Below, piece after piece: positions 11,244-54,626 of a stretch of DNA of 57,395 bases; position 1 is the first letter of the stretch; every line of letters begins with the position of its first letter. Where the stretch lies: IMG/VR virus record IMGVR_UViG_3300036791_001261, positions 1 through 57,395 of that record; one strand, given 5' to 3'. Source of the DNA: a virus. Lineage: Duplodnaviria; Caudoviricetes. The notes under the pieces were generated by a model. It searched no databases, was not told the DNA's origin, and saw only the letters and a program-made list of their open reading frames with translations. The translations under genes and the position numbers were made by a program.

Positions 11244-11484
11244 GTTTGGCCTCCTCGTGTCTGGTGAATTCGGTGAGCTTCAAGGTCACGTACTCGAGCG
11301 TGATCGCGAAGCTGGAATCGTCCGCGCCCACGGCCCAGCCGAGGGCCTGGAACATGGCCCAGGCGCGCATGGCCTCCTCGCGCGCCTGGCCCCAGATAAA
11401 GGTCCGTGCCGGACCGATGAAGCTGGCGCCCAGGATGGCGATCGCCCCCCGCAGTTCTTCCGCGCTGCGGATTTCGTCGCTCAT
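11233..11484 (-). CDS. Hypothetical protein
   Basis: 83 aa, overlapping operon layout. Confidence 0.55.
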   Translation of the reverse strand: MSDEIRSAEELRGAIAILGASFIGPARTFIWGQAREEAMRAWAMFQALGWAVGADDSSFAITLEYVTLKLTEFTRHEEAKHAS

Positions 11485-12443
11485 CGGACGGCCTCCTCGC
11501 GGAAGTTAATGCGCCGCGAGCCGGCGACCACGTGCGTGTGCTGCTGGATGAGCCCTTCCTGCTCGTCGGGGGCGAAGCCGACCAGCTGCTCTTTAGCCAG
11601 CTCCTCCCAATTGGTCTTGGCGCTGTCCCGGGCCTTTTTCCAGGTCATTTTTCCGCGCTCCCAGGCCAGGCCCTCGTGGTCCCCGATGGCGCGCGTCAGC
11701 TGATTTTCAAGCACCCCTTTGCGCTCCTCGAGCAGCGCCAGCTGGCTGCGCACGCTGGCGTACTCCGCCAGCATTTCGGTCTCGGCCACCGTGGCCGGCC
11801 GCAGCTTCTCCCGCTCGCGCGGGTAACGCTTGCGCAGATAATCGCGCGCCTGGCGCGATCCCGAGAGCGGCGGCTCGACGCCCGGGAGCAGGTACTGGCG
11901 CCAGAAGGTTTCGCCCTCCTCGATGAGGATCTCTTCGAGCACCGGGTCGCGCGCGATCTTGTACACACGGAAATCGTTGCCGCCGATCAGTACCGCAATG
12001 TAGGCCAGGTCCAGCTCGCATACGCTCATCTGCCAGGCCACCTGCGCGACGTAATACTCGGGCACCCCGTCTTCGTTCCCGGCTTCCCGGTCCCATTCGC
12101 CCGCCCGGTACTGGCCGGCCGTTTTGATTTCGAGGATCTGGCGCTTGGGTTCGGTCAGGATAAAGGCGTCGGGGGACGCGTATTGCCAGGGACGCGTCGG
12201 CGAGTAGACGCGTTTATCGTGCCACGCTATGGGCAGATCCATACGCGCCGAGAAGACGCCCGCGATCACCGGCTCGAAGGTTTTCCCCCAAAACATCTCC
12301 TCCGTCTGCTCCGGCCCATCGATGAGTTCCTTCTTGCGCGCGTAGACTTCCCACGGTCCTTCCCAATCGGAAATCCCCGCCACGGCGGCGATCTCGCTCG
12401 CGCCGATCCCGGTTGTCTGGACGATGTCTTTCACGCTGGTCAT
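11481..12443 (-). CDS. YqaJ-like viral recombinase (lambda-exonuclease family)
   Basis: GIGASEIAAVAG, WGKTFEP, ASPD, LEIKTA, YVAQVAWQM. Confidence 0.92.
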   Translation of the reverse strand: MTSVKDIVQTTGIGASEIAAVAGISDWEGPWEVYARKKELIDGPEQTEEMFWGKTFEPVIAGVFSARMDLPIAWHDKRVYSPTRPWQYASPDAFILTEPKRQILEIKTAGQYRAGEWDREAGNEDGVPEYYVAQVAWQMSVCELDLAYIAVLIGGNDFRVYKIARDPVLEEILIEEGETFWRQYLLPGVEPPLSGSRQARDYLRKRYPREREKLRPATVAETEMLAEYASVRSQLALLEERKGVLENQLTRAIGDHEGLAWERGKMTWKKARDSAKTNWEELAKEQLVGFAPDEQEGLIQQHTHVVAGSRRINFREEAVR

Positions 12444-12676
12444 GCGGAAACTCCCAGCAGGCGGCGGCGCGTGGAGGGGTATGTCCCTCCCTTTTCCTGC
12501 CGTTCGGCCTCGAGTCCGCGCATGAAAAAGTAGGCCACGATCTCGCCCTGGGACCAGTGCATGAATTCATTTTTTTGAAAGCGCTGCTCAATTTCTTTGA
12601 GGGCCTTTTGGGCGGTCTCCGGCCAGCGGACGGAGAGTTTGGTATAGGGTTCTTTAGGGGAGGTTCTGCGCGCCAT
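12440..12676 (-). CDS. Small DNA-binding protein (RHH/Cro-position)
   Basis: First gene after the leftward promoter; KLSVRW strand followed by two helices; AAGGAG RBS. Confidence 0.55.
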   Translation of the reverse strand: MARRTSPKEPYTKLSVRWPETAQKALKEIEQRFQKNEFMHWSQGEIVAYFFMRGLEAERQEKGGTYPSTRRRLLGVSA

Positions 12677-12775
12677 TCAGGGTACTCCTTCAACGACACA
12701 CGACCAGCGCGGTAGGCCAGGTTTCACGTCCGCCCGGCCTCTTCAAGCCGCTTCAGACTGGTGCGGGTTGAGGGA

Positions 12776-12804
12776 ATGTTACCCCTCGCCGAAGTCCGCG
12801 TCAA
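12776..12804 (-). promoter_or_regulatory. Sigma70-type leftward early promoter
   Basis: TTGACG-N17-TAACAT on the minus strand. Confidence 0.7.
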
Positions 12805-12823
12805 CCCTTATTTACTCCTTTAC

Positions 12824-12864
12824 TGCCAGCACTTTGCCAGTAAGTTGTCTAACAAATGCCAGCA
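12824..12864. promoter_or_regulatory. Phased TGCCAGYA repeats (candidate operator)
   Basis: TGCCAGCA 12824, TGCCAGTA 12835, TGCCAGCA 12857 (11- and 22-bp spacing), just upstream of the -35. Confidence 0.45.
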
Positions 12865-13103
12865 TGTCTCCTGGACTATCGGCTACGGGTAATCCCCTTA
12901 CTGATGTGTACTAAATATCGGCGGGTCTTATACTTGAAAAACGGCTCTGAGGATCGCTGTCAGGACGGCAATTCTCAGCGTTTTTGTCGCTAGGTTGCAG
13001 ACAGATTGCCCCGCAAGTTTTTTACCCTAGGGCCAGGACGGTGCGTTTTGGGACAGGTTCACCCTGCGTTCATGCTGATAGGTGCGCGCTGCCGACATAG
13101 CCG

Positions 13104-13868
13104 ATGTTACGGTACTTTGTGGCCCGAAATAGGCCTTTTCGAAAGCGCCGGAAAACGCTACACTTTGGGCACTTGGGTGCCCCTTCTTCCCCCGCCCTGA
13201 AGCGGGCTTTCGGTTTGGCTCTGCGTGCTTTGCGCCAGCAGAGGGGCCTGACTCAGGAAGCCCTGGCCCAAAAAATGAACATGCATCCGGGTTACGTCGG
13301 CGAGCTGGAGCGCGGCGAGCGGGACGCCAGCCTCACGACGCTGTACCGCGTCGCCTCGGCGTTGCAATTTAAGCCCGCCAAGCTGCATCGCGAAATGGAG
13401 AGCCATCTGCGGAAAGAGACCAGGGGGTCGCGGGTCCCGTCCCTGTCGCGCGAGATGAAAGACCTGCGCGCGCATATGGACGCCTCGCCGCTCATGATGT
13501 GGTTGGCCGGTCCCGGCCAGAAAAATATGTATACCAACCGGCCGCTGCTCGACTTCCTCGGCCTCCCGCTCGAGGAGGTGACGGGCGATAAATGGAGAGC
13601 TGTGATGCATCCCGAGGACCTGGCCGCGCGCGACCAGGTCACGCGCACGGCGTTCGCCACCCGCCGGCCCTACACCTACCACTACCGTATCCGCGACAAG
13701 AGCCAGGCATTTGTCTGGATCGTGCAGCAGGCCCTGCCCATTTTCATCAAGGGGAAATATCTGGGCCACCTGGGAACCATGATCCCGGACGCCATTTTCG
13801 AGGGTAAGACCGGCCCTGTCGTCTTCGAGGTCAAGGCCGGCCCCAAGCCGCGCCAGCGCAAATCCTAG
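13104..13868 (+). CDS. XRE-family HTH repressor fused to a PAS domain (start may be TTG 13173)
   Basis: FGLALRALRQQRGLTQEALA...YVGELERGERDASL (HTH_3); MDASPLMMW...YTN...W..VMHPEDL...YRIRD...WI...P...GHLGT (PAS_3 pattern); divergent from the early operon. Confidence 0.88.
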   Translation: MLRYFVARNRPFRKRRKTLHFGHLGAPSSPALKRAFGLALRALRQQRGLTQEALAQKMNMHPGYVGELERGERDASLTTLYRVASALQFKPAKLHREMESHLRKETRGSRVPSLSREMKDLRAHMDASPLMMWLAGPGQKNMYTNRPLLDFLGLPLEEVTGDKWRAVMHPEDLAARDQVTRTAFATRRPYTYHYRIRDKSQAFVWIVQQALPIFIKGKYLGHLGTMIPDAIFEGKTGPVVFEVKAGPKPRQRKS

Positions 13869-13874
13869 CCTGTC

Positions 13875-14861
13875 CTAGTGGCGGCCCGCTATCGTCTGGG
13901 CGGCGGCGCCGAAGACCTGCCCATCGAGGAGGTCGGCTACTCCCTGGCGATGCTCATCGACCAGCAGCCAATGCATTTTGAGCCTGTTCCATTTCACGAC
14001 GCCGTTGCGCGCGAGACGGATGAGTTCGCGGTGCGAACCGTGGCCGGTGCGGCGCAGGTCGTCTTCGAGCGCGATCTTCTTCTCGAGGGTCTGCGACATG
14101 GCCGGGCCCTCGAGCAGTAGCCGCAGCGCCTTGGTGATCCAGGGCGGGATCGAGTCGTGCGCCACGCGCGCGATCGCCGCCATGTCGCTGGGGTCGGTTT
14201 CCACGCGTCCAAACAAATAGGCGTGCCGCACCGCCAGCAGGCCGAAGGCCTTGACGATCGAGTGCCAGTCGAGATACCAGGGCGCCAGGCGCTGCACCAG
14301 CTCGCAATGGTAGAGGAAATTGGGAGGCTCGAGGAAGCGCGGCGGATCGGGCGGACGCGCTGCCACGCGGTCTTCGAGCACATAGCGGGTGGCGGCTGCG
14401 AGCTCGTCGGCGCGCCGGTCCTGGTTGTATTTGTCGAGCGCCTTCAGGGGATCGGCGGCGCGGTGCGATTTGGTTCTCACGCGCAGGGCCCGCTGGAGAA
14501 AATACTGCGCCTGGGTGAGCCGGTGGAAGCGCGGAAATTTCTCCCAATCGCACTCGATGAACAGGCGCTCCTCCGACGGGGAATCGAGCATCTCCCGCAT
14601 CTCGGATTCGATGTCGCGCCAGGGCGAGCGCGCCCGCAGCCGGGCGAGCGAGCAGGGCAGCCACATGCCGCCGAACGAGAACCAGCCGTCCTCGCAGTCG
14701 CGCGAGTACCAGTTGGTTTCGAGGATCAGCCAGACCGAGGGGGTGCGCGGGCAGGGGATCAGCCCGGAGAGCAGGACCTCGACCGCCACCCGGTCCTCCA
14801 CGTTGTATTCCCGGGCCAGCAGGCTCGCCAGCTCGTCGACGCGCGAAGCCCAATCGATCAT
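13875..14861 (-). CDS. Hypothetical protein, possibly degenerate MCM-like AAA+ with C-terminal wHTH
   Basis: VWLIL with no intact Walker A; HAYLFGRVETDPSDMAAIARVAHDSIP lid-like motif. Confidence 0.5.
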   Translation of the reverse strand: MIDWASRVDELASLLAREYNVEDRVAVEVLLSGLIPCPRTPSVWLILETNWYSRDCEDGWFSFGGMWLPCSLARLRARSPWRDIESEMREMLDSPSEERLFIECDWEKFPRFHRLTQAQYFLQRALRVRTKSHRAADPLKALDKYNQDRRADELAAATRYVLEDRVAARPPDPPRFLEPPNFLYHCELVQRLAPWYLDWHSIVKAFGLLAVRHAYLFGRVETDPSDMAAIARVAHDSIPPWITKALRLLLEGPAMSQTLEKKIALEDDLRRTGHGSHRELIRLARNGVVKWNRLKMHWLLVDEHRQGVADLLDGQVFGAAAQTIAGRH

Positions 14862-14902: not shown

Positions 14903-17900
14903 ATGTTAGGCGGTGGAGGATTTTCTCCCGGCGGCATCGCGGTGCCCGGTCCTGTCGGTCCTCAGGGACCGCAGGGAACGCGCGGCCCGGTCGGGCCTCC
15001 GGGTGAACCAGGACAACAGGGACCGCGTGGCTTTAACGGTTCTAGTGGCCCCGCTGGCCCGCCCGGTCCTGCTGGCCCGGACGGACCCCAGGGACCTCAG
15101 GGCGATCCCCTGATCGCGATTAATATCGTGGGCGTGGTCGCGACCAGCGCCGATCTGCCGGCGACGGGCAATACCACCGGCGACGCCTGGGTCACTAGTT
15201 CCGACGGACACGTCTGGTTCTGGAACGGCACCGCCTGGGTCGATGGCGGCCCCATGCGCGGACCCACCGGTCCCGCAGGTGAGCAAGGCATCCAAGGCCA
15301 ACAAGGCGTCCAGGGCAGCGATGGCTCCCAGGGGCCGCAGGGGCCGGCGGGAGGCCAGGGATCGCAGGGAACTCCCGGCCCGCAGGGTCCGCGTGGCGGC
15401 TGTGGTCCTCCCGGTGTCGGCGTCTTTCTGAAGGGCACCGTTCCCACCGCTGCCGACCTGCCCGTGGTCTGCAATCAGGTGGGCGATGCTTTTATCGCCG
15501 CCGATACCGGCGACCTGTGGTTCTGGGACGGCTGCAAGTGGGTGGATCTCGGTCAGGTCCGAGGCCCGCAAGGCCCGCAAGGGGATCAAGGTGTGCCGGG
15601 GCCGGAAGGCCCCATGGGAAACCAAGGTCCGGTAGGCCCTCAGGGCGTCCAAGGCGTGCAGGGTCTGACCGGTCTCGAAGGGGAGATGGGTCCTCCCGGC
15701 ACCAGCGTGGCGTTTCAAGGATCGGTGCCCAACTCCGGCTCCCTGCCGCCCAGCGGCAATCAGCCGGGTGACGGATATCTGGATGAATCGAACGGCCACC
15801 TTTGGGTCTGGGACGGCACGCAGTGGATCGACGAAGGGCCGATTCAAGGCCCCCAGGGGCCGCAAGGCCCGGAAGGCAGTGTAGGTCCGCCCGGCATCCA
15901 AGGCGTCTCCGGCGTGCAAGGCCCAGAAGGCGTGCGCGGCCCCGAGGGCATTCCGGGGCCGGAAGGGCCGCTTGGTCCGCCGGGGCCAGCCGGTACCGGA
16001 GTCTGCTGTAAAGGCGTGGTCGACACTGCGGCGGATCTGCCCACCGATACCGCCTGCCTGCGTTGCTGCGATGCCTTTATCGCGGCGGACACGGGGCACA
16101 TGTGGGTCTGGGACTGCGTGAACAAGGTGTGGGTGGACGCCGGTCAAATCCAGGGTCCTACCGGCCCGGAGGGTCCGGTGGGCCCGGAGGGTCCGCGCGG
16201 CCCGCAGGGCAATGACGGTCCGCCTGGCCCGCAAGGCTCCCAAGGCCCGCGCGGACCCGAAGGCCCTCTCGGCCCCGCAGGTCCTGCCGGGGCACAGGGC
16301 GTTGCCGGGATTGGGATCAACCTCAAGGGTAATGTCCCCACCTTCGCTGACCTGCCGCCCGGCCCGCACACGCAAGGGGACGCCTGGGTGGTGGAGGACA
16401 CGGGCCATTTGTGGGTGTGGGACGCGACCAACTCAACCTGGATCGACGCGGGGAAAATTGTCGGCCCGCAGGGTCCGGCCGGCCCGCAGGGTCCGCAAGG
16501 CATCCAAGGCCCGCAAGGCTCGCAAGGTAACACTGGGCCGCAGGGCGCGCAAGGCCCGCAAGGCGTGCCGGGTCCCACGGGTCCCACGGGGCCTGCGGGA
16601 CCTCCGGGAGCAACTGGGGCAACCGGCCCGCAGGGTCCCCAGGGCGCTCCCAGCCCAGCCGGGGATTTGATCGCCGGTCCGGGGATCGGCCTGGTAACCA
16701 ATCCAGGCCCGCCGGTCGAGACCACCATCAGTGTCGTGCCCGCGTGCTTCATACAATCCCCCTGGCTCTGTGATCACGATGCGGCCGGATTCAGGCTCTT
16801 CACGCAAGCCGCCTCCAATCTGCCGCTCCTGTTCGCGCCAAATAATAGTGAGGCTGTGCGCATCACGGGGGCGGGCAATGTGGGCATCGGAACGGCGACA
16901 CCCGCTGCTCTGCTCGACGTCAACGGAGTGATCCGCTCGATTAGCGCTAACAGTATTCCGGCCAGCGGGGTCGGTGTGGAAATTTACTACGACCCCTCGT
17001 TGACGAGCGGAGTAGTGCAGGCTTATGACCGCACCGTTAGTCCCAACAGTCCCGATACTTTGCTCTTGAACCCCTACACGCGGGCGGATGCGACAGATCC
17101 AGTCGCTGGAGTAGGAATCGGAACTACACGGGTTCCGACATACGGCATCAGCGGAGACGCCACGTATTTGAGCATCGTGGGACCAATCGAGCACACGCAA
17201 GCTGATCCAGGTTCTGGCGCTGCCGGAATAGAGCTAGCCTCCAATGGCCCGGATGTTACAAGAACCATCGGCATAATCAATTTCACCGACCTGCAGAACA
17301 CGACAACGGTGAAGGACGCGGCGCACATCTCCGTCGAAATTACAGGCAGCGTATTAGGCAACCGTGGCAGTGACATGTTATTCGCAACCAGGCCGGATAA
17401 CTATAACCCTACGCCTGGACCGTTTGTGCTTTCTCCGGAACGCATGCGGATCACGCAGGATGGCCTGGTGGGCATCGGGACGGCGGTTCCCCAGGCCTTA
17501 TTGGAAGTCAACGGAGTGATGCGCTCGACTAGCAATACCCCTATCCCGACTAGCGGGGTCGGTGTCGAGATTTATTACGACCCCTCGTTAACCAGTGGCG
17601 TGGTCCAGGCGTATGACCGCACTGCTGCGACTCCTGTTGATCTGCTCTTGAATCCCTACACGCGAGCCAATGCGGCAGATCCAGTCGCCGGAGTGGGAAT
17701 CGGAACTACGCAAGTTCCGACATATGGAATTTCCGGAGAGGCAACATATCTCAGCATCGTCGGGCCACCAGAGAGCACGCTGGCCCCGGGTGATCCCGGT
17801 GCGGGCGCTGGTGGTCTAGAGCTAGCCTCTAACGGTCCTGATCAGGCACGGACTGTCGGCATCATCAACTTTACTGATCTGAAGAACAGCACACCGTCCA

Positions 17901-19219
17901 AAGATGTGGCACACATCAGCGGAGTAATCACAGGCAGCGTTGCCAACAACCGGGGGGGTGCACTGGTATTCGGCGTCAGGCCGGATTCGTATTCAGGGTC
18001 CCCCACTCTCACTGCTCCGGAACGCATGCGCATCGATGGCATCACCGGCAACGTGGGCGTTGGGAACACGGGTCCGACCTACCGGCTCGATATCAGCACT
18101 AGCGCAGTTAGCGTCCTTAGGGCCGTAAGCTCATCGGCAGTTAACGCCGTATTCGCGTTAGGTGCCAATAGTACGCAATGGTCGTGGATGGCAAACGGTA
18201 CATCTCCCAGCGCTGGCGCGGCGGGTGATTTTTGGCTCAATAGAGTCGGATTTGGTTCGGTGCTGCTCGTGCAGAGCGCCACCAACTACGTGGGCATCGG
18301 GACGACGGCACCTTTCTATCCCCTCGATGTGCAGGCTCTCGGAGTGGATATAGGTTCAGGTGGTACGCCAACAGCTTTCAACAACGTCGTCTCTGAATTC
18401 GTGAGCAACGACGGAAATTTTAGCGGAGTCGCGCTGGGATATGACACCAGGGCACCTCACATAGGCACTGTCGCCGCGCAAGGCGCGGCAGCGCCTACTC
18501 AACTGGCCTTTTGGACTTCCATTGCCACTGCCCCAGCGGGTTGGTATGAGCGCATGCGCATCACGGGGGAGGGCAACGTAGGCATCGGGACGACGACTCC
18601 GCAATGCTCATTAGATGTCGCGGGCCTGATTCGGTCTACAGCAGATACTCCGGGGCCTACCTCCGGAAAATGCATAGAAATGTACTTTCATCAGGCCACA
18701 AGTACGGGTCAAGTTGACTGCTATGATTACACCGGAGGTGCGTTTACACGGCTGTCGCTTGTTGGGAACCCGCTGATATTGAATCCTGATGCTACACTCC
18801 ACGTCGGCATTGGGGCCTTCGCTGGAAGTCCGCCTCACCTCTTCGAACTATCCATAGACGATGCCGCTAAGCCATCCACAAACACGTGGACGATTGCATC
18901 GGATACGCGACTAAAGCGCAACATAAAGGATCTTACCGGGGGACTAGACATTATCACTCGCTTACACCCAATCGAGTGTGAATATAACGGGTTACATGGC
19001 ACGCCAGAGGGACAACGCATAACTGGTTTTCTGGCTGATGAGATTCGAGAAATTCTGCCGGGTACAGTGAAATCTCATCGTGGCAAACTCCGCGAGACTG
19101 ACCAGCAGGAAACCGATATCCTAGATTTCAATCTTCATGAGGTGCTAATCCATCTCGTCTTAGCAGTGAAGCAACTCGCGGCCGCGCAAGTCGAGACTGC
19201 CGGATCGAAAATGAAATGA
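14903..19219 (+). CDS. Long tail fibre: collagen repeats with 5 Trp-rich knobs, GNVGIGT modules, C-terminal S74 intramolecular chaperone
   Basis: (Gly-X-Y)n; GDA(W/F)...[11 protein letters not shown] x5; [12 protein letters not shown]...[12 protein letters not shown]...AVKQL. Confidence 0.92.
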
Positions 19220-21302: not shown

Positions 21303-21879
21303 GCAGCGCAAGCTGGGGTTGGCCAGCCGCAGCCCGCTCTCGGTGGCCTTTCGCCACATCAAGCCCGACTGGCGGCGCTATATCCAGTACGTCGACCTCG
21401 CTGCGCGCAAGGGCGACATTGCCATGGCCCGCTTCCGCGACTGCTACGAGTCCCTCGATAGGTTCGACAAGGTCAATGTTTGGCCCGAGCAGCTCTGCGT
21501 GATGGCCAACATCACGCCCGGCGAGCTGGTGGGCACGGTATGCCGCCACATCTGGGAATCGAAGGCGGCCGAAAGCTCCATGGTCAGCTCCATCGCCCAT
21601 CCCGAGCTACTGCTGGACACGATCAAGTTTGCCCGTAGCGAAGAGAACTACCGCGACCGGGAGCTGTTCTTCCGCCTGACCGGGTCGCTGCCGGATCGCA
21701 AGGGCGCGTCGATTAATATCTTCAACGCCGCCGCCGGCCAGGTGAACGAGACGCTGCCTGAAATCCGGCAAGGCCCGAGCCGGCTGCGGACGTTTGATGA
21801 CGAGGTGATCGACATGAGCCGCGATCTGGAGAACGACCCGCCGTTTTTAGTGAAGGACGACCCGGATGTTTCACCATAG
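21181..21879 (+). CDS. Probable terminase small subunit (positional)
   Basis: AGGAG RBS; immediately upstream of and overlapping terL. Confidence 0.5.
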   Translation: MAKTGKPRKTGGRSSPPRAEAFENLPAKQLPPPPIHVAKGKQRKLGLASRSPLSVAFRHIKPDWRRYIQYVDLAARKGDIAMARFRDCYESLDRFDKVNVWPEQLCVMANITPGELVGTVCRHIWESKAAESSMVSSIAHPELLLDTIKFARSEENYRDRELFFRLTGSLPDRKGASINIFNAAAGQVNETLPEIRQGPSRLRTFDDEVIDMSRDLENDPPFLVKDDPDVSP

Positions 21880-24037
21880 GATCATCGAAGCCACACTGCG
21901 CCGCTGGGCCGCGAAACCGGCGAACTTCGAGCCGGAGTATCACTCGGCGCTCGAGGCCGAGCGCATCACCGCCCACTTCAACTCGCTGATAGAGCCCGAT
22001 GAAAACGGCACGCTGCGCAGCGTCCGCCACCCCGATAAAGACTGGCGCGAAACGCTGGAGCCGGACGAGATCCGCCTCATCCGCAACGAAATGATTCTGT
22101 GCCGCGCCGATTTCAACTATTTCGTGAGCCGCTACGCCTGGATCAAATCCGACGAGGACCGCGTGGTGCGCCTCGATCCGTGGATCTCGCAGCAGATCTT
22201 CCTGTCGATCCTGGCCGAGATGCAGGAGCAGGATATCTCGCTCATGCTGATCATTCTCAAGGCGCGTCAGCTGGGCTTGTCGCGCATCATCTCGCTCATC
22301 GTGCTGCACAGCGTGCTGTATTTTCCCCACACCAACGCCTTCTTGGCATCGAGCACGGAGGACAAGACCGGCTTGCTGTTCGACATGCTCGACTTCGTGC
22401 TCTACCGCCTGCCGTTTTGGATGCGGCCGGCGGAAAAGTACCGGCGCGAGAATAAATTCCTCGAGCTGCTCAACGGCAGCGCGCTCACGCTGCAGCACGG
22501 GCAGCAGACCACCGGCATCGCGCGCGGCACCACGCCCACCAAGGCGCACATTTCGGAGCTGAGCGAGTTCGATGAGTTCAAGGTCAGCGATCTGATCGAC
22601 AGCGCCTTGCTGCGCGCCATGCACGATTCGCCGCAAACGTTCCTGGCCTTGGAGAGTACCGCCAAAGGCCAGAACAACTGGTGGCATCACAAGTGGGTTT
22701 CGGCCAAGGCCGGGTGGCCGGAGCGCCGCTCGCGATTGCGGCCGCTCTTCCTGCCCTGGTTCGTCGGCGGCCTGTACCCCAAGGAGCACTGGCTGCGGGC
22801 CCACCCGGTGCCGCCCGATTACTCGAGCCGCATGCTCGATTGGGCCGCCGCGCACGCCGAGGGCGCGGAAGAATACGTGCGCAAAACCGAGTACCTCTAC
22901 GCGCGCCTGGGGCGCGACTGGCAGATGCCGCTCGAACAAATCTGGTATTACGAGTGTGAGCGCGACGCCGCGATCCGCGAGAAGCGGCTGAACAAGTTCC
23001 TCCAGGAGATGCCTTCGAATGACGACGAGGCCTTCCAGTCGACGGCCCTCTCGGTCTTCCCCACGGAGACCATCACGTTCTACCGCGACAACGCGCACCG
23101 GCAGGAGTTGCTCGGTACTTACGGCCTGGTCGGCGCGCCGGAAATCGTGAACCCGCGCCTGCAGCCGCCCTCCCTGCTGCGCAACCCCAATCAGCCCTCG
23201 ATCATCGTCCGCTGCGAGCGCACGACCAGCTATCCGATGCAGTTCGAGCTGGTGCCGCTGCGCTTTGACGGCTGGTCGCTCGAGTCGGGCGTCGACAAGA
23301 TTTACATCTGGGAGATGCCGATCGCAGGCGAGACCTACGGCATCGGCATGGACACTTCCGACGGCATCGAAAAAGACCGCACCGTGCTGGAGGGCCTGCG
23401 CAAGGGTTCGATCAACGGGCCCACCAAGCAGGTTTTCGAGTACGCCTCGGGTAAGATGAACGCCCTTGACAGCTGGCCCTTCGCGCTCGCGCTGGGAACG
23501 CTTTACTCGGTGCCCGACCAGACCGGTATGGTACAGCAGCCGCGCATGGCGATCGAGTGCAAGGGCCACGGCGATATGGCCCAAAATTTAATCCGCCAGA
23601 TGGGCTGGACGAATTTCCATCCCTGGAACGACAAGCAGCTCGACAACCGCACGCCCAGGCTTTCCCAGTTCCACAAGATCGGCGTGTACACCACCAGCTG
23701 GTTCAGGGACGGGATGATCGAGATGCTCGTGAAAATGCTGCGCGACGGCGATATCGAGATTGCGAGCCCGTTCTTCGTGCAGGAGATGGCCTCGCTGCAG
23801 GGCGACCAGTTCGTGCAGTCGCTCAAGGCCGGCTATGGCGGCTTCGACGATCGCATCATGGCTTTCGGTTTCATCCTCGTCTCGCTCTACAAGTGGGACG
23901 CGGACTATTTCCGCAGCGCCAAGATCGCCGCCTACAGCGGGCGCAGCCCCGTGGGCCGCGAGCAGCCCAAACGGCAGTATGCCCAGTGGGTATATTCCTA
24001 TCAGGAGCGCAACGATGTCGGTATCTATGAATCTTGA
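21866..24037 (+). CDS. terL: Terminase large subunit
   Basis: IILKARQLGLS (Walker A), AHISE (Walker B), LESTAKG, YGIGMDTSDG..KD, FDDRIMA. Confidence 0.93.
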   Translation: MFHHRIIEATLRRWAAKPANFEPEYHSALEAERITAHFNSLIEPDENGTLRSVRHPDKDWRETLEPDEIRLIRNEMILCRADFNYFVSRYAWIKSDEDRVVRLDPWISQQIFLSILAEMQEQDISLMLIILKARQLGLSRIISLIVLHSVLYFPHTNAFLASSTEDKTGLLFDMLDFVLYRLPFWMRPAEKYRRENKFLELLNGSALTLQHGQQTTGIARGTTPTKAHISELSEFDEFKVSDLIDSALLRAMHDSPQTFLALESTAKGQNNWWHHKWVSAKAGWPERRSRLRPLFLPWFVGGLYPKEHWLRAHPVPPDYSSRMLDWAAAHAEGAEEYVRKTEYLYARLGRDWQMPLEQIWYYECERDAAIREKRLNKFLQEMPSNDDEAFQSTALSVFPTETITFYRDNAHRQELLGTYGLVGAPEIVNPRLQPPSLLRNPNQPSIIVRCERTTSYPMQFELVPLRFDGWSLESGVDKIYIWEMPIAGETYGIGMDTSDGIEKDRTVLEGLRKGSINGPTKQVFEYASGKMNALDSWPFALALGTLYSVPDQTGMVQQPRMAIECKGHGDMAQNLIRQMGWTNFHPWNDKQLDNRTPRLSQFHKIGVYTTSWFRDGMIEMLVKMLRDGDIEIASPFFVQEMASLQGDQFVQSLKAGYGGFDDRIMAFGFILVSLYKWDADYFRSAKIAAYSGRSPVGREQPKRQYAQWVYSYQERNDVGIYES

Positions 24038-35092: not shown

Positions 35093-36174
35093 TGCAGCGG
35101 GCGCAGGGATTCGCGCAGCAGGGCAACCGGCTGGTGTGGACGGCGGGGCTGTCGTCGTCCAATCTCGTCCAGGAGAGTTGGCCCTTCGCTACCATTGCGG
35201 TCTACCTCACTGGCACCGCGACGCTGGCCGAGATTTACGCCGACAACCTGCTCCCGCCCACGCCGCGCCCCAACCCTTTCACCGCCAACCAGGACGGCTA
35301 TTGGTGGTTCTATGCGGCCAACGGCCGCTATGACGTGATGATGACGTCGGGGAACCTCTCCTGGACTATTAGCGATCTGCCTCTCGTTGATACCGGCATC
35401 AATTTCCGGGGCATTGTCACCGACACCTCGCAGTTGCCGCTGACCGGCAACGGAGTGGGCGATGCCTTTTGGAACTCGACCACCGGCGTTCTGTGGGTGT
35501 GGGACGGCACGCAATGGACAAACTCCGGCTCATTCATGGGCCCTCAGGGCGCAACGGGACCGCAAGGCGCAGCAGGCACTCCTGGGGCGACCGGCCCGCA
35601 GGGACCGATGGGCCCGCCCGGCCACAGCACGACCATCCAGGGGAGCGTACCGGACTCCAGCCAGTTGCCGCCCTCGGCGAACGAGGGGGACGCCTACATC
35701 GACGACTCGACCGGCGATCTCTGGTCATGGACGGGTACCGCCTGGATAAACGTGGGCAAGATCATGGGGCCGCAAGGTCCCGTCGGTCCGGTCGGTCCCG
35801 GTGGTCCGCAGGGGCCGCAAGGACCGCAAGGAATTCAGGGACCGCAGGGGATTTCGGGGGTGCCGGGGGCGCAGGGCCCACCGGGGCCGAGTGGCAGCGG
35901 TATCGGCGCGGGCGGCCCCGTTACCGCGCAGCGCGCGTTCAATGTCAGCTACGTCAACAACACCGGCAGCGCGATGATGGTTACGGTCAGCGCGGAGCTT
36001 GCCTCGTCCGCCACGGTAGCCGCTACCGTCAATGGCACGCTGGTCGCGGAAATCTGGAACACACCTACCGAATACAACATCTGTGCCCTGTCATTCTGGG
36101 TGCTCCCAGGGCAGAGCTACGAATGTCAGGGAGCCGGGGGTCCTATTTTGCAAGTCTGGAGCGAATGGTGGTGA
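35092..36174 (+). CDS. Short collagen-like fibre with virion-attachment N-terminus
   Basis: LAEIYADN...[17 protein letters not shown] anchor; 2 Trp knobs + Gly-X-Y repeats. Confidence 0.8.
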
Positions 36175-47900: not shown

Positions 47901-48046
47901 CGCTTGCCGGAAGTTGAGTCGATGTGGTTCACGCACACAGCAACAAACAAGATCACCAGTAGCAAGGCGATCATGAGGGCCGCATCGAACCAACGCCCGG
48001 ATACAACACAGACTGCGAGCAGCGCGGCGAATAACAGCCACATCAT
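47897..48046 (-). CDS. 49-aa two-TM membrane peptide
   Basis: MMWLLFAALLAVCVVSGRWFDAALMIALLLVILFVAVCVNHIDSTSGKR; GGAGG RBS; ATGA-coupled to the recombinase. Confidence 0.65.
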   Translation of the reverse strand: MMWLLFAALLAVCVVSGRWFDAALMIALLLVILFVAVCVNHIDSTSGKR

Positions 48047-48966
48047 TGGTTCCTCCCCAGGCCCAACCGGTCGTTGGGCGCATTCACCAGATCCTGCGTA
48101 GTGCCCAGGTAGCGCTCGGTCGTCTGGATCGACTCATGACCAAGCATCAGCTGGATCTGCTCGAGCGCGCTGCCTGCCGAGCGGCATAACTTCGCGCAGG
48201 TGCGACGAAGGTCGTGCGCCTTGAGCGCCACGCCAATCGTACGGCCGTAGTGCGTGGTGAGGTCCAGGATCGCGGTGCCGCTGATCGAGTCGCCGCCGAT
48301 GTGTCCCCACTGGTCGATGCTGCGGAGAATGGGCCCCGTCTGGAGTTGTGCCGCTTCCGCCCACTGGTCGATCGCGGCCTTCACCCAGGCGGGCACCGCG
48401 ATGGTGCGGATCCGGCCCCGCTTGCCCCGGATGTCGACGATGGCCCAGCGCTCCTCGCGCTGCTGGATGTGCTCGAAGGTGAGTTGTGCCGCTTCCGACC
48501 GCCGCAGGGCGCAGCCCACGAGCAGCGCCAGCACGGCATAGTCGCGCTTCCCCTTGAGCGTCGTCAAGTCGGGGGCGCGGAGCAGCTTCTGGGCTTCGGC
48601 CAGCGTCAGCCAGTTGCCGGCGCGATTGCCCGACTGCCGCGCGTTGGATACCTGCCGGACGGCGGCGGCGGTTTCGGCGTCGAGATAGCCGTTCAGCGCG
48701 GCCTCGGCGGCCAGCTTGCGGATAGCCGCCAGGCACTTGTTGATGGTCGGCGGCTGGAGGCCTCGCCCGACAAGTTCCGTGCGCCAGGCCTGCACGCTGG
48801 CGCGGTTGAACGGAAGCGCGCGCTCGGACTGCCAGGCGAGGAACTCGGCCAGGGCGTGGCCGTACTGCCGCTTGGTTTCGGGATTCGAGACGGCGCCGAG
48901 CACCAGGCCCAGCACCGCCTCGAGCGCGGAGGACTGCGGGATGACGGCAAGCGCTGTGGTCGCCAC
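48043..48966 (-). CDS. Second tyrosine recombinase (Xer/resolvase-like, no arm-binding domain)
   Basis: CALRRSE, GKRGRIRT, AHDLRRT, LGHESIQTTERY. Confidence 0.92.
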   Translation of the reverse strand: MATTALAVIPQSSALEAVLGLVLGAVSNPETKRQYGHALAEFLAWQSERALPFNRASVQAWRTELVGRGLQPPTINKCLAAIRKLAAEAALNGYLDAETAAAVRQVSNARQSGNRAGNWLTLAEAQKLLRAPDLTTLKGKRDYAVLALLVGCALRRSEAAQLTFEHIQQREERWAIVDIRGKRGRIRTIAVPAWVKAAIDQWAEAAQLQTGPILRSIDQWGHIGGDSISGTAILDLTTHYGRTIGVALKAHDLRRTCAKLCRSAGSALEQIQLMLGHESIQTTERYLGTTQDLVNAPNDRLGLGRNQ

Positions 48967-49482: not shown

Positions 49483-49748
49483 CCTATGAACCTCCGCTCT
49501 TCCAGGCGGGTGATGCGATCGCCGTGCTCGGCGACTTTGTCCGAGATGCGCTGGCTTAAGCGCGATTCCATCTCCGTCATCTGGAGCTTCAGCCGCGCTT
49601 CCGAAGTGCCGATTTCCGCCTTGCAAGTGCCGATTTCCGCCTTGATCGTGCGCAGCAGCGGAATTGTGACTATGCCGTAGAGGCCCGCGATCAGTGCAGC
49701 GATAGCGCCGATGGTCGCTGCTATCGGTTGCCAGTATTGTGGATTCAT
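49479..49748 (-). CDS. TM + coiled-coil protein
   Basis: N-terminal hydrophobic helix; KAEIGT repeat; RITRLEE. Confidence 0.7.
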   Translation of the reverse strand: MNPQYWQPIAATIGAIAALIAGLYGIVTIPLLRTIKAEIGTCKAEIGTSEARLKLQMTEMESRLSQRISDKVAEHGDRITRLEERRFIG

Positions 49749-50356: not shown

Positions 50357-50655
50357 GTTCTGTCCTTCCAGCCGACGGCGAAGTCGAGCTGCGTGCCCAC
50401 ACCGTCGGTCTCAGCGCTGTAGTGCTCATGGCTCTGTCGGCAGAGGTCGTAAAGGTCTAGCCCGCGCCGGTCGCAGAGGTGGGCCAGATCGGCAATCAGA
50501 TCGTAGATGGCCGTGTCCAGTCCATCGCCTTCTTCCGTGAGGCCGGTGCGCTTCATGAAGCATTGCACGGCATCAAGCGCCCACTCTGCCCGGTCGTCGT
50601 TCTGCTCCTCCGGGTCGGGCGGCAAGGGCTTCGTTTCGTCTTGCTTTTTCGTCAT
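50353..50655 (-). CDS. Hypothetical protein
   Basis: DLIADLAHLCD motif; conserved leader. Confidence 0.7.
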   Translation of the reverse strand: MTKKQDETKPLPPDPEEQNDDRAEWALDAVQCFMKRTGLTEEGDGLDTAIYDLIADLAHLCDRRGLDLYDLCRQSHEHYSAETDGVGTQLDFAVGWKDRT

Positions 50656-50682
50656 TGTCTTGTCCTTTCGTTTGTGCTGATG

Positions 50683-50925
50683 CTATTCGCACTTCCTGCA
50701 ATAGAGGCTGCCGGGGACCTGCAGGCGCTCCAGGCATTCGACGCAGTAGCGCGGATGCTCGGGGTCAATGCCGGTAAGCTCCCGGGCCTCGGCAATCAGC
50801 CGACTGACGGTCTCAACGGCGTCATCCCCGTCCATTCCGCCTTCGATTTCGTATTCGCTCGTCATGCGGGCGATCTGCTCCACAAAGGCCGAAGGGCTGC
50901 GCCATCGGTTCTTAGTTGTGCTCAT
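50683..50925 (-). CDS. Hypothetical Zn-finger protein starting MSTTKNR
   Basis: CVEC..CRKC. Confidence 0.65.
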   Translation of the reverse strand: MSTTKNRWRSPSAFVEQIARMTSEYEIEGGMDGDDAVETVSRLIAEARELTGIDPEHPRYCVECLERLQVPGSLYCRKCE

Positions 50926-51212
50926 TTCTTCACCTCGCTAATCGAGACACGGAACTTGCGCCCGTTGTGCTCGACGACATCGCCGTTCGAGATCACGTAG
51001 TCATCGTTGACGTAGATCACATGATCAAAGTCCTCCTGGCTTTCCGGGTCCTCGTTGTGCTCCCAGTCGTAGTTCTCGTCTACCTGCTTCTGGATCTCCG
51101 CGTGCGCCGTGGTGGCGTCGTTGCGGCCATACGCGGCGAAATAGCAGTAGTTCTCGTCATCGCCATGCGAACGCCAGTTGACGATCTGGATGCGGTTCTT
51201 GGTTGTGCTCAT
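50922..51212 (-). CDS. Acidic hypothetical protein starting MSTTKNR
   Basis: GGAGGA RBS; ATGA overlaps. Confidence 0.65.
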   Translation of the reverse strand: MSTTKNRIQIVNWRSHGDDENYCYFAAYGRNDATTAHAEIQKQVDENYDWEHNEDPESQEDFDHVIYVNDDYVISNGDVVEHNGRKFRVSISEVKK

Positions 51213-51457
51213 TGCTTGTCCTCCTCTCCTTGTCCTTGCACCTCCAGCCCGACAATGTCGAAGCTCTCGTCTTCATTGCAGTCGAAATACTGCTCCGAGC
51301 GCTCATCGGGATCATCCGGCATGGGCGCTTCGTCCATTTCCTTCTCCCACCAGTCCTGGACATAGGCGTCCAGTTGCGCGCAAGCGGCTTCTTCGGTGGT
51401 GAACACCCAGTAGTCCCGACCATGCCTGTGGTCGATGACGAGCAAATGGATAATCAT
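51209..51457 (-). CDS. Acidic hypothetical protein
   Basis: IDHRHG motif; ATGA overlaps. Confidence 0.65.
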   Translation of the reverse strand: MIIHLLVIDHRHGRDYWVFTTEEAACAQLDAYVQDWWEKEMDEAPMPDDPDERSEQYFDCNEDESFDIVGLEVQGQGEEDKQ

Positions 51458-52155
51458 GCCGCCCTCTCAATCTGCACGAACCCGCCCGCCGGGAGGTGCT
51501 GGATGATGTGCCCTTTCTCCCGCAGCCCCACAATCACGCCTTTCGGATCGAGGAATCTTAAATCGTGCCGGTCGCCGTCGATGACCCGCACGCCATGCCA
51601 GGTCCGGGGCTTCGCCCCACGGAACACCACCGCCACGTTGATGTTGTGCTCCAAAGCCTTCATGCAGTGCTTTAGGTTTGTGCCGCTAAAGCTATACGTC
51701 AGGTGGTAGTTCTCCATGGTCCGCTCCCACGGCCGCTGGAGTTTCGTGTAATCGTAGAACGGCACCTCGGGATAGCGCCGCGCCATGGCCCGGGCAAGCT
51801 TGGGCTGATCGCTTGTGCCGTTCAGCCGCTCGGCCGGTTTCAGCCCCCGGCTCTCGCACTCCACCAGGAATTTATCCGTGTCCCGCTCCAGGCGAGCGCA
51901 GAACGCCCCGAAGTCCGCGAGATAATCCAGGGTCTTCGCGATCCGGGCCTGCTGGATCGTGGGGTAAACCTCGGCCAGGCCCGAGCAGTTCAGGCAGGCC
52001 AGGGTGCATTCCGGGCTACGTCCGCCGCACAGGTCGTGCACGCCGTCGGCCTCCCTGGCCGGGGCGAGATAGAGCAGCGCCGTGAGCCATCCGTAGGCCT
52101 TGCCCTTTTTGCTCTTGGCGTCGCGGTCGACGCTCAGTAAATCGTATTTTGCCAT
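51454..52155 (-). CDS. GP88-like phage protein (radical-SAM-like Cys motif)
   Basis: CGGRSPECTLACL, RLNGTSD, FYDYTK, DGDRHDLRFLD. Confidence 0.8.
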   Translation of the reverse strand: MAKYDLLSVDRDAKSKKGKAYGWLTALLYLAPAREADGVHDLCGGRSPECTLACLNCSGLAEVYPTIQQARIAKTLDYLADFGAFCARLERDTDKFLVECESRGLKPAERLNGTSDQPKLARAMARRYPEVPFYDYTKLQRPWERTMENYHLTYSFSGTNLKHCMKALEHNINVAVVFRGAKPRTWHGVRVIDGDRHDLRFLDPKGVIVGLREKGHIIQHLPAGGFVQIERAA

Positions 52156-52189
52156 GTCTATGCCCTTTCTGTCATAAGTCCTTGCGTTT

Positions 52190-52240
52190 CAGCGCGATGT
52201 GCGCTGTTTCGAATTTCGCACATCGCGCTGTTTCAGTCAA
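52190..52240 (-). promoter_or_regulatory. -35 box (TTGACT) overlaid by a perfect 14-bp inverted repeat (candidate operator)
   Basis: CAGCGCGATGTGCG (52190-52203) and CGCACATCGCGCTG (52217-52230); A-tract upstream. Confidence 0.6.
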
Positions 52241-52268
52241 GAAATTTCAAATTTTTTTTGTGCGCCCG

Positions 52269-52571
52269 CTAATCCAGGTCCTCCTTGCCTGCGGCGGTCT
52301 TGTCGATGTCCACGACGATGCGGCTGAAGGCCTCGCGGAATTCCTCCACGGCCTCCTTCGTGGTCATGCATTGGGCTGCGATATTGAGCGGCGCCAGGAA
52401 CCGCTGGACGGCCCGCAGGGCTTGTGCCTGCAGGTCGAACGGCAGGCAGTCGAACAGGCTTAGTGCGTCGGACTGGTTAAGGGCCTCGCGCAGCATGGTG
52501 CGGAAGATGTGATCGTAGGCCGGGGTCAGTACGATCTCCCGGGCGTCGGCGTCGTTCGATGGGTTGTGCAT
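52269..52571 (-). CDS. Hypothetical protein
   Basis: 100 aa, GAGGA RBS. Confidence 0.6.
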   Translation of the reverse strand: MHNPSNDADAREIVLTPAYDHIFRTMLREALNQSDALSLFDCLPFDLQAQALRAVQRFLAPLNIAAQCMTTKEAVEEFREAFSRIVVDIDKTAAGKEDLD

Positions 52572-52572
52572 T

Positions 52573-52773
52573 TCAGTCGTCCTCCTCGTCTCGAAATGTC
52601 TCTTTCCAGCATTCGCCGCAGATCCCGCTCAGGAGCAGTTCCCGTTCAGCGGCGGGCACGTCGGGCATTGCCTGCTGGGCTAGTGCTCCGTTCTTCCAGT
52701 CCTGGAATTGCTCTTCAGTGCAGTGGATGGGGCGCGGTTTGCCGCAGACCACGCAGGTTCGTGCGATAGCCAT
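52573..52773 (-). CDS. Zn-ribbon hypothetical protein
   Basis: CVVC...Q.AMP...RELLLSGICGECW. Confidence 0.75.
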   Translation of the reverse strand: MAIARTCVVCGKPRPIHCTEEQFQDWKNGALAQQAMPDVPAAERELLLSGICGECWKETFRDEEDD

Positions 52774-52777
52774 AGTG

Positions 52778-53086
52778 TTAGTCCTCCTCCTCTTCGTCTT
52801 CGCCCGATTCTGCCGGCGTGGCGATGACCACGTCGCCGACGATGTAATCGCTCCAGGCCATGCCGGAGTGTTGTGCCGCGATCAGATCCGCGACCGGGTT
52901 GTAGGGCAGATCGTTGAGCTTGCCCTCCTCGGCGAGCCACATGACCGTGCCATCGTTGAGCGGCAGGGCTTCGATCACCCCTCCGACCATGTGTTGAAGC
53001 TCTTCGAGCGTGAACGCCTTGCCATTGCGCGGCGTGATGCTGGTGCTCGATACGGTTTCGCCTTCGACTCTAATCCAGAGCGCCAT
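52778..53086 (-). CDS. DUF3846-like protein
   Basis: LEELQHMVGG.IE...EEGKLNDLPYN..A...IVGDVV. Confidence 0.8.
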   Translation of the reverse strand: MALWIRVEGETVSSTSITPRNGKAFTLEELQHMVGGVIEALPLNDGTVMWLAEEGKLNDLPYNPVADLIAAQHSGMAWSDYIVGDVVIATPAESGEDEEEED

Positions 53087-53270
53087 GTTCTTGTCCTTTC
53101 AGTTTGTTGATGGCATGCGCTATCGCTTTTTGTGCCGCGTACGAGTCATAGTCCGCGATGTAAGTGTGCAGTCCGGGCAAATCCGGATGGGTATATTCGT
53201 GGTGCGTGGTGCCGATCAGCTTGTGCTCGAATCCTTGCGCCACGAGATAGACGTGCAGCGGGTGTTTCAT
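53070..53270 (-). CDS. Hypothetical protein
   Basis: Preceded by the conserved leader. Confidence 0.6.
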   Translation of the reverse strand: MKHPLHVYLVAQGFEHKLIGTTHHEYTHPDLPGLHTYIADYDSYAAQKAIAHAINKLKGQEHGALD

Positions 53271-53320
53271 ACGTCTTTGTCCTTTCGTTGTGCCAGGGGA
53301 GGCTTACGCCTCCCCATGGG

Positions 53321-53752
53321 TTACCCGTTGCGTCCTTCCCTGATCATGCGATCGAGTGCGGCGACGCCCTCCGCCACGGTAATGTCCTTCAAGCTGCGGT
53401 AGTGCAGTTCGTCCGTGCCGTAGTTGTGATCCAGCCTCCAGGCGTCCTCGGCCATGTAGCCTCCCCGGTTGAAGAACAGGCGTTCGGCCTGGTGCAGGTC
53501 GAGCCCCAGTAGTGCAGCGGCGTTATCGCCGGTGATCTGGTCTCCGTCTTCGCCGAACAGCAGGCAAGTCCATCCGGCCAGACAGCCGGACGTGCCGCAG
53601 CTCTCCGTTGTGCCGAGGAATTTCCTGGCGTCGTCCACGTAGTTCAGCCCCATGGCCTCGATGAACGTGCCCATGTTGAAGTGCAGCTTGCCGTTGAATG
53701 CCTGGCCCTCGGCCAGGGCGTTGCGTAGTGCCGTCATCCGTTCGATGTTCAT
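53321..53752 (-). CDS. Hypothetical protein
   Basis: FNM...CGTSGCLAGW...AAALLGL...LF; second ATG fits RBS spacing. Confidence 0.7.
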   Translation of the reverse strand: MNIERMTALRNALAEGQAFNGKLHFNMGTFIEAMGLNYVDDARKFLGTTESCGTSGCLAGWTCLLFGEDGDQITGDNAAALLGLDLHQAERLFFNRGGYMAEDAWRLDHNYGTDELHYRSLKDITVAEGVAALDRMIREGRNG

Positions 53753-53806
53753 GTTCATGTCCTTTCGTCTTGCTGAAGGGGAGAGTTGTGCTCTCCCCTA
53801 GATTGT

Positions 53807-54001
53807 TTAGGTGTGGATGTAACCGTCATACTCGATGCCGATGTACATCCCCCATCGCTCGAAGAAGTAGTGATCGTAGTTGTGCCGGATGAGCGGGAGT
53901 ATCTCTGCCGCCTGATCGGGCCATGCCTTGGTCACGGCGTTGACCACCGCCACGGGCAGGACTTCGTCCGGCAATAGTGCCAATTGCCTAGTGCTGCTCA
54001 T
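53807..54001 (-). CDS. Hypothetical protein
   Basis: GMYIGIEYDGYIHT C-terminal motif. Confidence 0.65.
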   Translation of the reverse strand: MSSTRQLALLPDEVLPVAVVNAVTKAWPDQAAEILPLIRHNYDHYFFERWGMYIGIEYDGYIHT

Positions 54002-54239: not shown

Positions 54240-54322
54240 GTCTATGTCCTTTCGTCTTAGCCTGTCTCATCAGCATGGGTAGGCTATCTCCCATGGACCA
54301 GGGACGATGTCCCTGGTTTCGA

Positions 54323-54574: not shown

Positions 54575-54626
54575 GTCCATGTCCTCCAGGGTTAGGGGAG
54601 AGCCGAAGCCCTCCCCTCGTCTTCCC

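Follow-up and report, generated by a model that had tools for sequence, protein, structure and literature searches.

A temperate-phage XRE-HTH/PAS fusion regulator divergent from the early operon, and its possible role as lysogeny repressor

The locus

The window analysed here is the whole of a virus record (IMG/VR IMGVR_UViG_3300036791_001261; 57,395 nt, G+C ~63%, rated 100% complete), and the element in question is a gene within it that joins an XRE-type helix-turn-helix (HTH) DNA-binding domain to a PAS domain. The HTH-PAS gene reads rightward. It is divergent from a leftward array in which a 78-aa gene is followed by a YqaJ/RecE-like exonuclease gene and, further on, by a Prim-Pol/AAA_25 primase-helicase gene, and it converges with a 328-aa gene on its other side, with 6 nt between the two stop codons. 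The features of the locus, with residues numbered in the longest open reading frame (ORF), are as follows:

11481..12443, minus strand: YqaJ/RecE-like recombination exonuclease (Pfam YqaJ, E 4.9e-23; phrog_434, E 3.8e-70)
12440..12676, minus strand: 78-aa gene opening the early operon, with a strong AAGGAG ribosome-binding site and a 4-nt overlap with the exonuclease start
12677..13172, no strand assigned: divergent intergenic control region, 496 bp separating the 78-aa gene from the probable TTG start of the HTH-PAS gene
12776..12804, minus strand: probable early promoter (TTGACG-N17-TAACAT), directed towards the 78-aa gene and exonuclease operon
12821..12864, plus strand: cluster of TGCCAGYA boxes, three copies (12824, 12835, 12857) and an inverted copy with one mismatch (12821)
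13173..13868, plus strand: HTH-PAS regulator gene, 231 aa from the probable TTG start at 13173; the longest ORF, from ATG 13104, has 254 aa
13221..13382, plus strand: XRE-type HTH DNA-binding domain (six-frame HTH_3 match, E 3.1e-17)
13461..13778, plus strand: PAS domain, residues 120-225, from PAS_3 and PAS matches and the strands of the structural model
13779-13865, plus strand: short basic C-terminal tail, predicted to be disordered
13875..14861, minus strand: 328-aa gene, convergent with the HTH-PAS gene

The HTH-PAS fusion and its start codon

Both domains scored above their curated Pfam cut-offs in the 254-aa ORF: HTH_3 at residues 40-93 (E 6.1e-15; 55.4 bits against a cut-off of 23) and PAS_3 at residues 142-214 (E 5.7e-11; 43 bits against 25.6). 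The PAS family PF00989 covered residues 120-225 but fell slightly under its cut-off. Each of the five other family members tested also had both domains above cut-off. Together with the confident AlphaFold model described below, these matches bear out the HTH_3 and PAS_3 fusion that a first-pass annotation had read from the letters and translations.

The true start of the gene is probably TTG 13173. This choice rests on the alignment of the homologues, whose N-termini lie ~8-12 residues ahead of the first helix and coincide with that codon, and on the G+C content at third codon positions, which drops upstream (0.57 over 13104-13172 vs 0.82 in the remainder of the gene). Automatic gene calls in public collections (197 and 212 aa) begin inside the HTH (window 13104-13275). 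Such internal starts remove part of the HTH, so that the fusion is hidden and the annotation of the product mentions PAS alone. The homologue on the metagenomic contig L004, introduced below, is likewise miscalled, at 215 aa.

A six-frame search of the whole record gave a single HTH_3 match, which is the HTH-PAS gene, and no Peptidase_S24 (PF00717) match at E<=1. The absence of S24 excludes derepression by RecA-stimulated (SOS-driven) self-cleavage. By Pfam scan, HTH families occurred in one of 51 ORFs (the HTH-PAS gene and 50 others), again the HTH-PAS gene, and a further 15 scanned ORFs contained no recognised DNA-binding domain; these scans covered part of the ORFs, and small proteins of the Cro or ribbon-helix-helix type can escape Pfam. 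No known antirepressor family was present among the ORFs scanned. Two further claims of the first-pass annotation, that the gene is the only repressor-like one and that it lacks an S24 autoproteolytic domain, therefore stand.

The translated window protein contains no cysteine, which rules out LOV-type or thiol chemistry for its PAS domain. A short C-terminal tail rich in K, R and P (for example GPKPRQRKS or PKPKKRKP) recurs in six of ten aligned family members, including the window protein; it may act as a degradation signal or as an arm that binds DNA non-specifically.

Predicted fold and nearest relatives

From a family alignment of 10 rows, AlphaFold2 returned a model with a mean predicted local distance difference test score (pLDDT) of 83.5. 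The model consists of a five-helix HTH (6-85; pLDDT 84-89), a low-confidence linker (86-89), a helix (93-104), a PAS core (108-205) and a disordered basic tail. The core has five strands (108-112, 118-121, 167-174, 180-192 and 195-205) at pLDDT ~90. Foldseek matched the HTH to C.BclI (2b5a; root-mean-square deviation 0.7, target template modelling (TM) score 0.93) and the PAS part to PAS/LOV domains (target TM 0.74-0.78), so that the predicted fold agrees with the domain call made from sequence. The best whole-chain match was MltR (3pxp; E 5.4e-8), at a global (query) TM of 0.30 and 16% identity. In a viral structure library, 'PAS domain' proteins of uncultured phages aligned over 168-191 columns. 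A two-copy homodimer prediction with the family alignment A6 scored 0.28 against a mark of 0.42.

At the sequence level, the closest solved relatives of the HTH are controller (C) proteins of restriction-modification (R-M) systems, namely C.BclI (E 6.3e-14) and C.AhdI (E 5.7e-13), and PADLOC returned a Control_protein match (E 7.2e-13). More weakly, the HTH also fits phage repressors: PHROG repressor families, the immunity repressor in PDB 8bny and lambda CI (E about 2e-5). The residues invariant in the family (HP.D, YR and several G) we take to be the general PAS_3 pattern and not the signature of a ligand pocket.

The same slot in related phages

The slot between the early operon and the 328-aa gene was compared in six phages: the window, L004, L095, L096, L097 and L120. 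L004, a family member on a 23-kb metagenomic contig, belongs to a syntenic phage in which the early operon, divergent control region, HTH-PAS gene, a 325-aa gene and a collagen-repeat gene follow in the same order; the 325-aa gene product is 61% identical to that of window 13875-14861. The other four were found with the 328-aa gene as anchor. Across the five relatives the 328-aa protein is 59-65% identical (four relatives, and L120 at 65%). Contents of the slot, and phased repeats beside the early promoter (all read along the early operon), are listed here with the number of simulations that reach each repeat:

Window: HTH-PAS gene in the slot; repeat TGCTGGCA/TACTGGCA, three copies; 0/500 simulations
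L004: HTH-PAS gene in the slot; repeat TAGTTCCA/TAGTACCA, three copies; 1/500 simulations
L096: HTH-only gene in the slot; repeat ATCACGT, three copies; 0/500 simulations
L095: no HTH gene in the slot; degenerate GGNNCC units with an 11-nt period; 1/500 simulations
L097: no HTH gene in the slot; degenerate GGNNCC units with an 11-nt period; 0/500 simulations
L120: no HTH gene in the slot; no phased repeat

Two phages thus carry an HTH-PAS gene, one a homologous HTH gene without PAS, and three have an empty slot. Both family members for which there is genomic context (n=2, the window and L004) lie in the same slot of related phages. The slot protein of L096 (107 aa, HTH only) is 34% identical to the window HTH (E 1e-12), and it is the only HTH_3 match of its record, G002, which is complete (53.8 kb, with terminal repeats). 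Integrases were present in records G001, G002 and G003. The records holding L095 and L097, which also carry integrases, are fragments (34% and 45% complete).

Identity between the window and L004 falls to 37% in the regulator, and neither the control DNA nor the first early gene can be aligned, whilst the flanking gene is kept at 61%. To judge from these alignments, divergence of the regulator, its control DNA and the first early gene beside a conserved flank is the pattern expected of an immunity region. The CI-like position that had been proposed for the gene, divergent from an early exonuclease/primase operon, is upheld.

The control region

A search of Rfam with 12300-13400 gave a chance-level match alone, with no credible family score. 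The probable early promoter matches the consensus at 9/12 positions and is the best promoter-like site of the region. One such site compares with 0.5 +/- 0.7 in shuffled sequences and is not significant alone; a TTGAC[AGT]-N17/18 site is, however, top-scoring at the same place in all five relatives (L004, L095, L096, L097 and L120). The early promoter claimed from the sequence is therefore present and conserved in position, with the reservation that in the window by itself it stands at chance level.

The three phased TGCCAGYA boxes reported alongside it are firmer. They are spaced 11 and 22 nt apart, account for 3/6 matches in the window, and were reached neither in 300 Markov simulations (three same-strand copies within 60 nt; 0/300) nor in 500 shuffles (three phased copies; 0/500). 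The inverted copy at 12821 makes boxes 1 and 2 part of an imperfect palindrome, TTACTGCCAGCACTTTGCCAGTAA. Clean three-copy 8-mers are confined to the three phages with an HTH gene (0, 1 and 0/500 shuffles, vs 184, 159 and 179/500 elsewhere). The box cores of L004, L095 and L097 are nevertheless alike (GTWCCA/GGNNCC), and of these three only L004 has the HTH gene. L004 has a 23-nt palindrome, TTTTGCAGGGTACTCCTGCAGAA, that overlaps both the spacer and the -10 of its early promoter and is, by its position, the more conventional operator candidate; no equivalent was found in the window.

Other patterns were seen in the same DNA. On the minus strand at 12821-12842, two adjacent boxes read TGGCA-N6-TGGCA along the early operon and resemble a sigma-54 -24/-12 pattern, the consensus of which we take to be TGGCAC-N5-TTGCA, though no enhancer-binding ATPase turned up in the phage. 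In both HTH-PAS phages the early promoter and boxes are flanked by a long-range inverted repeat whose core resembles TTWCCCCT (window 12779-12792/12879-12892; L004 9694-9702/9876-9884). The 8-mer CTACGGGT is common to the window and L004 on the regulator side, and was not seen in the 90 nt upstream of the -35 in L095, L096 and L097. Nearer the regulator gene, at 12961-13041, a second set of repeats comprises GTTTTTGTCGCTAGG and GTTTTTTACCCTAGG, 37 nt apart, with two flanking copies of CAGGACGG. The regulator may have its own promoter or operator here.

Distribution of the family

The HTH-PAS family is very rare, amounting to about ten metagenomic singletons. Exhaustive searching of 1.84 billion representative proteins with phmmer returned 29,699 matches at E<=0.001, nearly all of them multi-PAS sensor proteins; among the best 150 of these were eight short relatives matching in a single stretch (94-258 aa, 39-57% identity), and a word-indexed search supplied a ninth (P0153). 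Regulator identity across the family is 34-56%. All of the family clusters have one or two members and are metagenomic, with none from a named genome.

Searches of genomes and contigs added L004 only. By tblastn, 50,697 deposited phage genomes contained no family member and one HTH-only match, and scans of viral contigs with the window protein, A3, P0123 and P0153 found no IMG/VR member besides the window. The sole find of the A4 scan of viral contigs (L003), a 774-aa multi-domain PAS protein, is unrelated. Two scans of species-representative genomes gave no loci and 11 HTH-only loci, respectively, none full length. A metagenome scan kept 80 loci, of which L004 alone was full length (query residues 2-225). 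Nine others proved on translation to be long multi-PAS proteins (557-1437 residues, some ended by a contig edge) and were set aside, and in the remaining 70 the match was limited to the PAS part. Profile A6, run on 401 genomes of the phylum of a Sphingopyxis metagenome-assembled genome (MAG), found no full-length member; all 55 places at E<=1e-20 were PAS-only, in open frames of 350-1609 aa. The proposed search for this architecture at the CI position of phages turned up one further example, on a metagenome contig, and none among the deposited phage genomes.

The XRE+PAS architecture is not unique, and already exists in bacteria, for example in MmyB/MltR. Several bacterial clusters of the ESM Atlas pair HTH_3 with PAS_3 or PAS_9. 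Two have the same domain pair and a similar size, at 209 aa (PAS_3 in 90%, HTH_3 in 67%) and 334 aa (PAS_3 in 99%, HTH_3 in 55%); with feature scores of 0.93 and members labelled bacterial, they are leads without an alignment. Full-text searches of the literature found no description of an XRE-PAS phage repressor.

Neighbouring genes and the phage genome

Of the two genes that flank the slot, the 78-aa protein had no Pfam, PHROG, PADLOC or PDB sequence match, and its AlphaFold2 model (pLDDT 59) had no Foldseek match. A ribbon-helix-helix reading of this protein, suggested by its sequence pattern, is unsupported by any of these searches and was dropped. The 328-aa protein likewise had no Pfam, PHROG, PDB or PADLOC match, none in the 50,697 deposited phage genomes (tblastn), and none in 401 genomes of the phylum of a Terriglobus MAG, 401 of the phylum of a Pirellulales MAG or five single genomes. 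Its structural neighbours in the Atlas comprise hypothetical proteins of viruses (397-413 aa) and a cluster of 699 aa with Toprim_2 in 30% of members, and the Atlas gave weak winged-helix leads for its C-terminal half. The protein may initiate replication or be a further regulator. With the exonuclease as anchor, no relative was found in viral contigs.

An identical direct terminal repeat of 127 nt (1-127 and 57269-57395) marks the record as a circularly closed or terminally redundant complete genome, and the leftward gene array therefore spans from 12676 through the record ends to an integrase at 48043. With its terminal repeats and the integrase, which marks a temperate lifestyle, the record is thus the complete genome of a temperate phage of uncultured origin. 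It contains no tRNA gene, and a portal match was weak, under the Pfam cut-off. Features elsewhere in the record are:

48043..48966, minus strand: tyrosine integrase (Pfam Phage_integrase, E 1e-18, 68.1 bits)
21866-24037: large terminase, nearest to phages of Tunturiibacter (Acidobacteriota), 32% identity over 89% of its length
14903-19219: collagen-repeat gene, 1438 aa, a tail-fibre candidate from its own translation alone and named by no tool

The collagen-repeat gene contains internal duplications of 580 nt, and shares collagen-like Gly-X-Y repeats and a 'WVWDG' motif with a second gene at about 35480-35880. Three copies of a 27-nt motif, TTTCACATTTTGCGCTGATTTTATCAG with variants, lie in the leftward early region (2110-2136, 52214-52240 and 55636-55662) and may be a repeated regulatory or terminator element. 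A 30-nt translation-initiation region (AAGACGAAAGGACATGAACATG-like on the coding strand) is conserved across five small leftward genes within 50645-54593, and a 21-nt tandem duplication at 49604-49645 repeats the peptide KAEIGT in a small membrane-protein-like ORF.

Comparison with known systems

The protein resembles lambda CI in its N-terminal XRE HTH, in a gene divergent from the early operon and in being the only such protein of its genome. It differs in its C-terminal domain, PAS_3 and not S24, with which RecA-stimulated autocleavage is impossible, and in that no promoter-overlapping operators were found in the window, where the boxes lie upstream of the -35.

MmyB-like MltR also has an XRE N-terminal domain followed by a PAS-related C-terminal module; it is reported to be a homodimer with myristic acid bound (PMC3406030). 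For the window protein, which is phage-borne, Pfam returned no MmyB ligand-binding domain at E<=0.1; the relatives of MltR are chromosomal regulators, mainly of actinomycetes.

A phage-encoded one-component regulator with PAS and HTH domains, divergent from a small gene, is also found in vibriophage VP882, where VqmA-Phage governs lysis-lysogeny. VqmA-Phage activates the small divergent gene qtip and itself, the PAS domain of VqmA both binds ligand and dimerises the protein, and the isolated DNA-binding domains are monomeric and inactive (PMC8284805). The domain order is the reverse of that in the window: the PAS of VqmA is N-terminal and its HTH C-terminal (PMC8284805), whereas the window protein has an HTH (40-93) of XRE type and then a PAS (120-225). 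VqmA-Phage, moreover, is described there as activating an antirepressor gene and not as the repressor itself; in the window, no separate repressor was found.

The R-M C proteins, though the closest relatives of the HTH, are single-domain chains of 74-77 residues encoded beside R-M genes. At 231 aa, the window protein includes a PAS domain and is encoded next to the exonuclease operon and the 328-aa gene, and no R-M domains were seen among the scanned neighbours.

What the regulator may do

The best-supported conclusion, drawn from the sequence and its alignments, is that the gene would encode a one-component XRE-HTH/PAS transcription factor. That this factor is the lysogeny (early-operon) repressor of the phage is quite possible, and we favour this role because the gene is the sole HTH_3 match in a complete record and is divergent from an exonuclease/primase early operon, and because the same slot holds a family member in L004 and a homologous HTH-only protein in G002. 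The immunity-like pattern of divergence, the integrase of the complete record and the match of the HTH to phage repressors speak for it as well. As repressor, the protein would be made from a slot between the conserved 328-aa gene and the divergent early promoter; its HTH would bind sites somewhere in the 496-bp intergenic region, and the promoter so controlled would drive the 78-aa gene, the RecE-like exonuclease and then the primase-helicase. The PAS domain would supply dimerisation, as the C-terminal domain does in lambda CI; since the PAS of VqmA dimerises an HTH regulator, dimerisation would be the default role for the PAS here. We infer all of these steps, that is DNA binding in 12677-13172, repression, PAS-mediated dimerisation and any signal input. 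Ligand sensing is possible by analogy with MltR and VqmA, and direct sensing of a signal by the protein is speculative, with the chances well against it. The full scheme, in which the protein is the sole lysogeny repressor and a host metabolite or other small molecule bound by the PAS switches DNA binding off, with neither SOS nor an antirepressor involved, we likewise consider improbable. The observation made in the first-pass annotation is thus confirmed, and its interpretation only partly supported.

Several of the results weigh against the repressor reading. The TGCCAGYA cluster is set 19-60 nt upstream of the -35 and does not cover the promoter; sites in this position are more typical of activator or architectural binding, and the geometry is unusual for occlusion. 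No operator for the HTH-PAS protein could be assigned in the window. Significant 11-nt phased repeats occur at the same place in L095 and L097, both without the HTH gene, so the boxes need not be operators of the HTH-PAS protein. The cluster is real, then, whilst its place in the switch is in doubt. The slots of L095, L097 and L120 contain no plausible gene, only 230-430 nt of DNA, which argues that phages of this group can do without the regulator or have it replaced from elsewhere. The nearest relatives of the HTH, the R-M controller proteins, both activate and repress, and no Shine-Dalgarno motif precedes any candidate start of the gene. Against sensing in particular, the closest solved PAS sequences are the PAS-B domains of HIF-1a/2a and NPAS and a sensor-kinase PAS of unknown ligand, and no cofactor motif (LOV flavin-cysteine, haem or FAD) was recognised, with no tool search made for these motifs; a ligand may still be bound non-covalently.

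A variant within the repressor reading keeps the repressor and gives the PAS a purely structural part in dimerisation or oligomerisation, with no ligand; induction would then come from an antirepressor, from proteolysis or from interference by the convergent 328-aa gene, for which the 6 nt between the stop codons would leave room at the level of transcription. We hold this variant as a tentative possibility. It suits the nearest solved PAS relatives, the lack of cysteine in the window protein, our reading of the invariant residues as a general PAS_3 pattern, the HTH-only protein that holds the slot in L096 and the requirement of the VqmA PAS for dimerisation (PMC8284805). It is harder to reconcile with the lack of a known antirepressor family among the scanned ORFs and with the best whole-chain match, MltR, which binds a fatty acid in its PAS-like domain (PMC3406030); conservation of the PAS across the family is compatible with either role.

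The empty slots raise a different alternative, that the gene is an accessory cassette and not the master switch: an optional regulator of superinfection immunity, of fine-tuning or of host genes, in phages where group-wide proteins make the decision and bind the repeats. Because phased repeats occur in two HTH-less phages and the cores of L004, L095 and L097 are similar, the boxes may, on these sequence comparisons, belong to a factor common to the group, for example the small first early protein or the 328-aa protein; the latter, as box binder, may suit an iteron-type origin. The mixed occupancy of the slot (two HTH-PAS, one HTH-only, three empty), the periodic repeats of L095 and L097 (rarely or never reached in simulations, as listed above) and the shared cores, with a regulator in L004 only, all favour this explanation. 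However, the HTH-less records of known completeness are fragments, the clean three-copy 8-mers are restricted to the three phages with an HTH gene, and neither the 78-aa nor the 328-aa protein has a recognised DNA-binding domain. An accessory role seems to us rather unlikely. We put still less weight on a VqmA-like, signal-dependent activator, whose PAS would sense a cue and which would then activate the early promoter, perhaps also its own, and so launch lytic development. The box cluster is at a common activator location, the -10 (TAACAT) is weak as in activator-dependent promoters, and the divergent first gene is small, like qtip of VP882; yet the complete genome yielded no second repressor candidate, the domain order and HTH type are unlike those of VqmA, the phased repeats also occur in relatives without the HTH gene, and no ligand is indicated.

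Implications for phage switches

In most temperate phages studied, induction depends either on RecA-dependent repressor cleavage or on an antirepressor, and the known phage PAS regulator, VqmA-Phage, works one step before the repressor. A repressor that carried its own PAS domain would, if true, be the shortest route from a cellular cue to prophage induction, and a repressor that was itself the sensor would differ from both lambda CI and the VqmA/Qtip relay of VP882. The practical weight of the finding is limited by an uncultured phage, a tiny family and an XRE+PAS pairing already known from bacteria. The HTH-PAS regulator is a variant of two known kinds of protein, the immunity regulators of phages and the XRE+PAS one-component regulators, and the most useful outcome of the analysis is the series of otherwise similar phages in which the slot holds HTH-PAS, HTH alone or no gene, a ready comparison for the contribution of the PAS domain.

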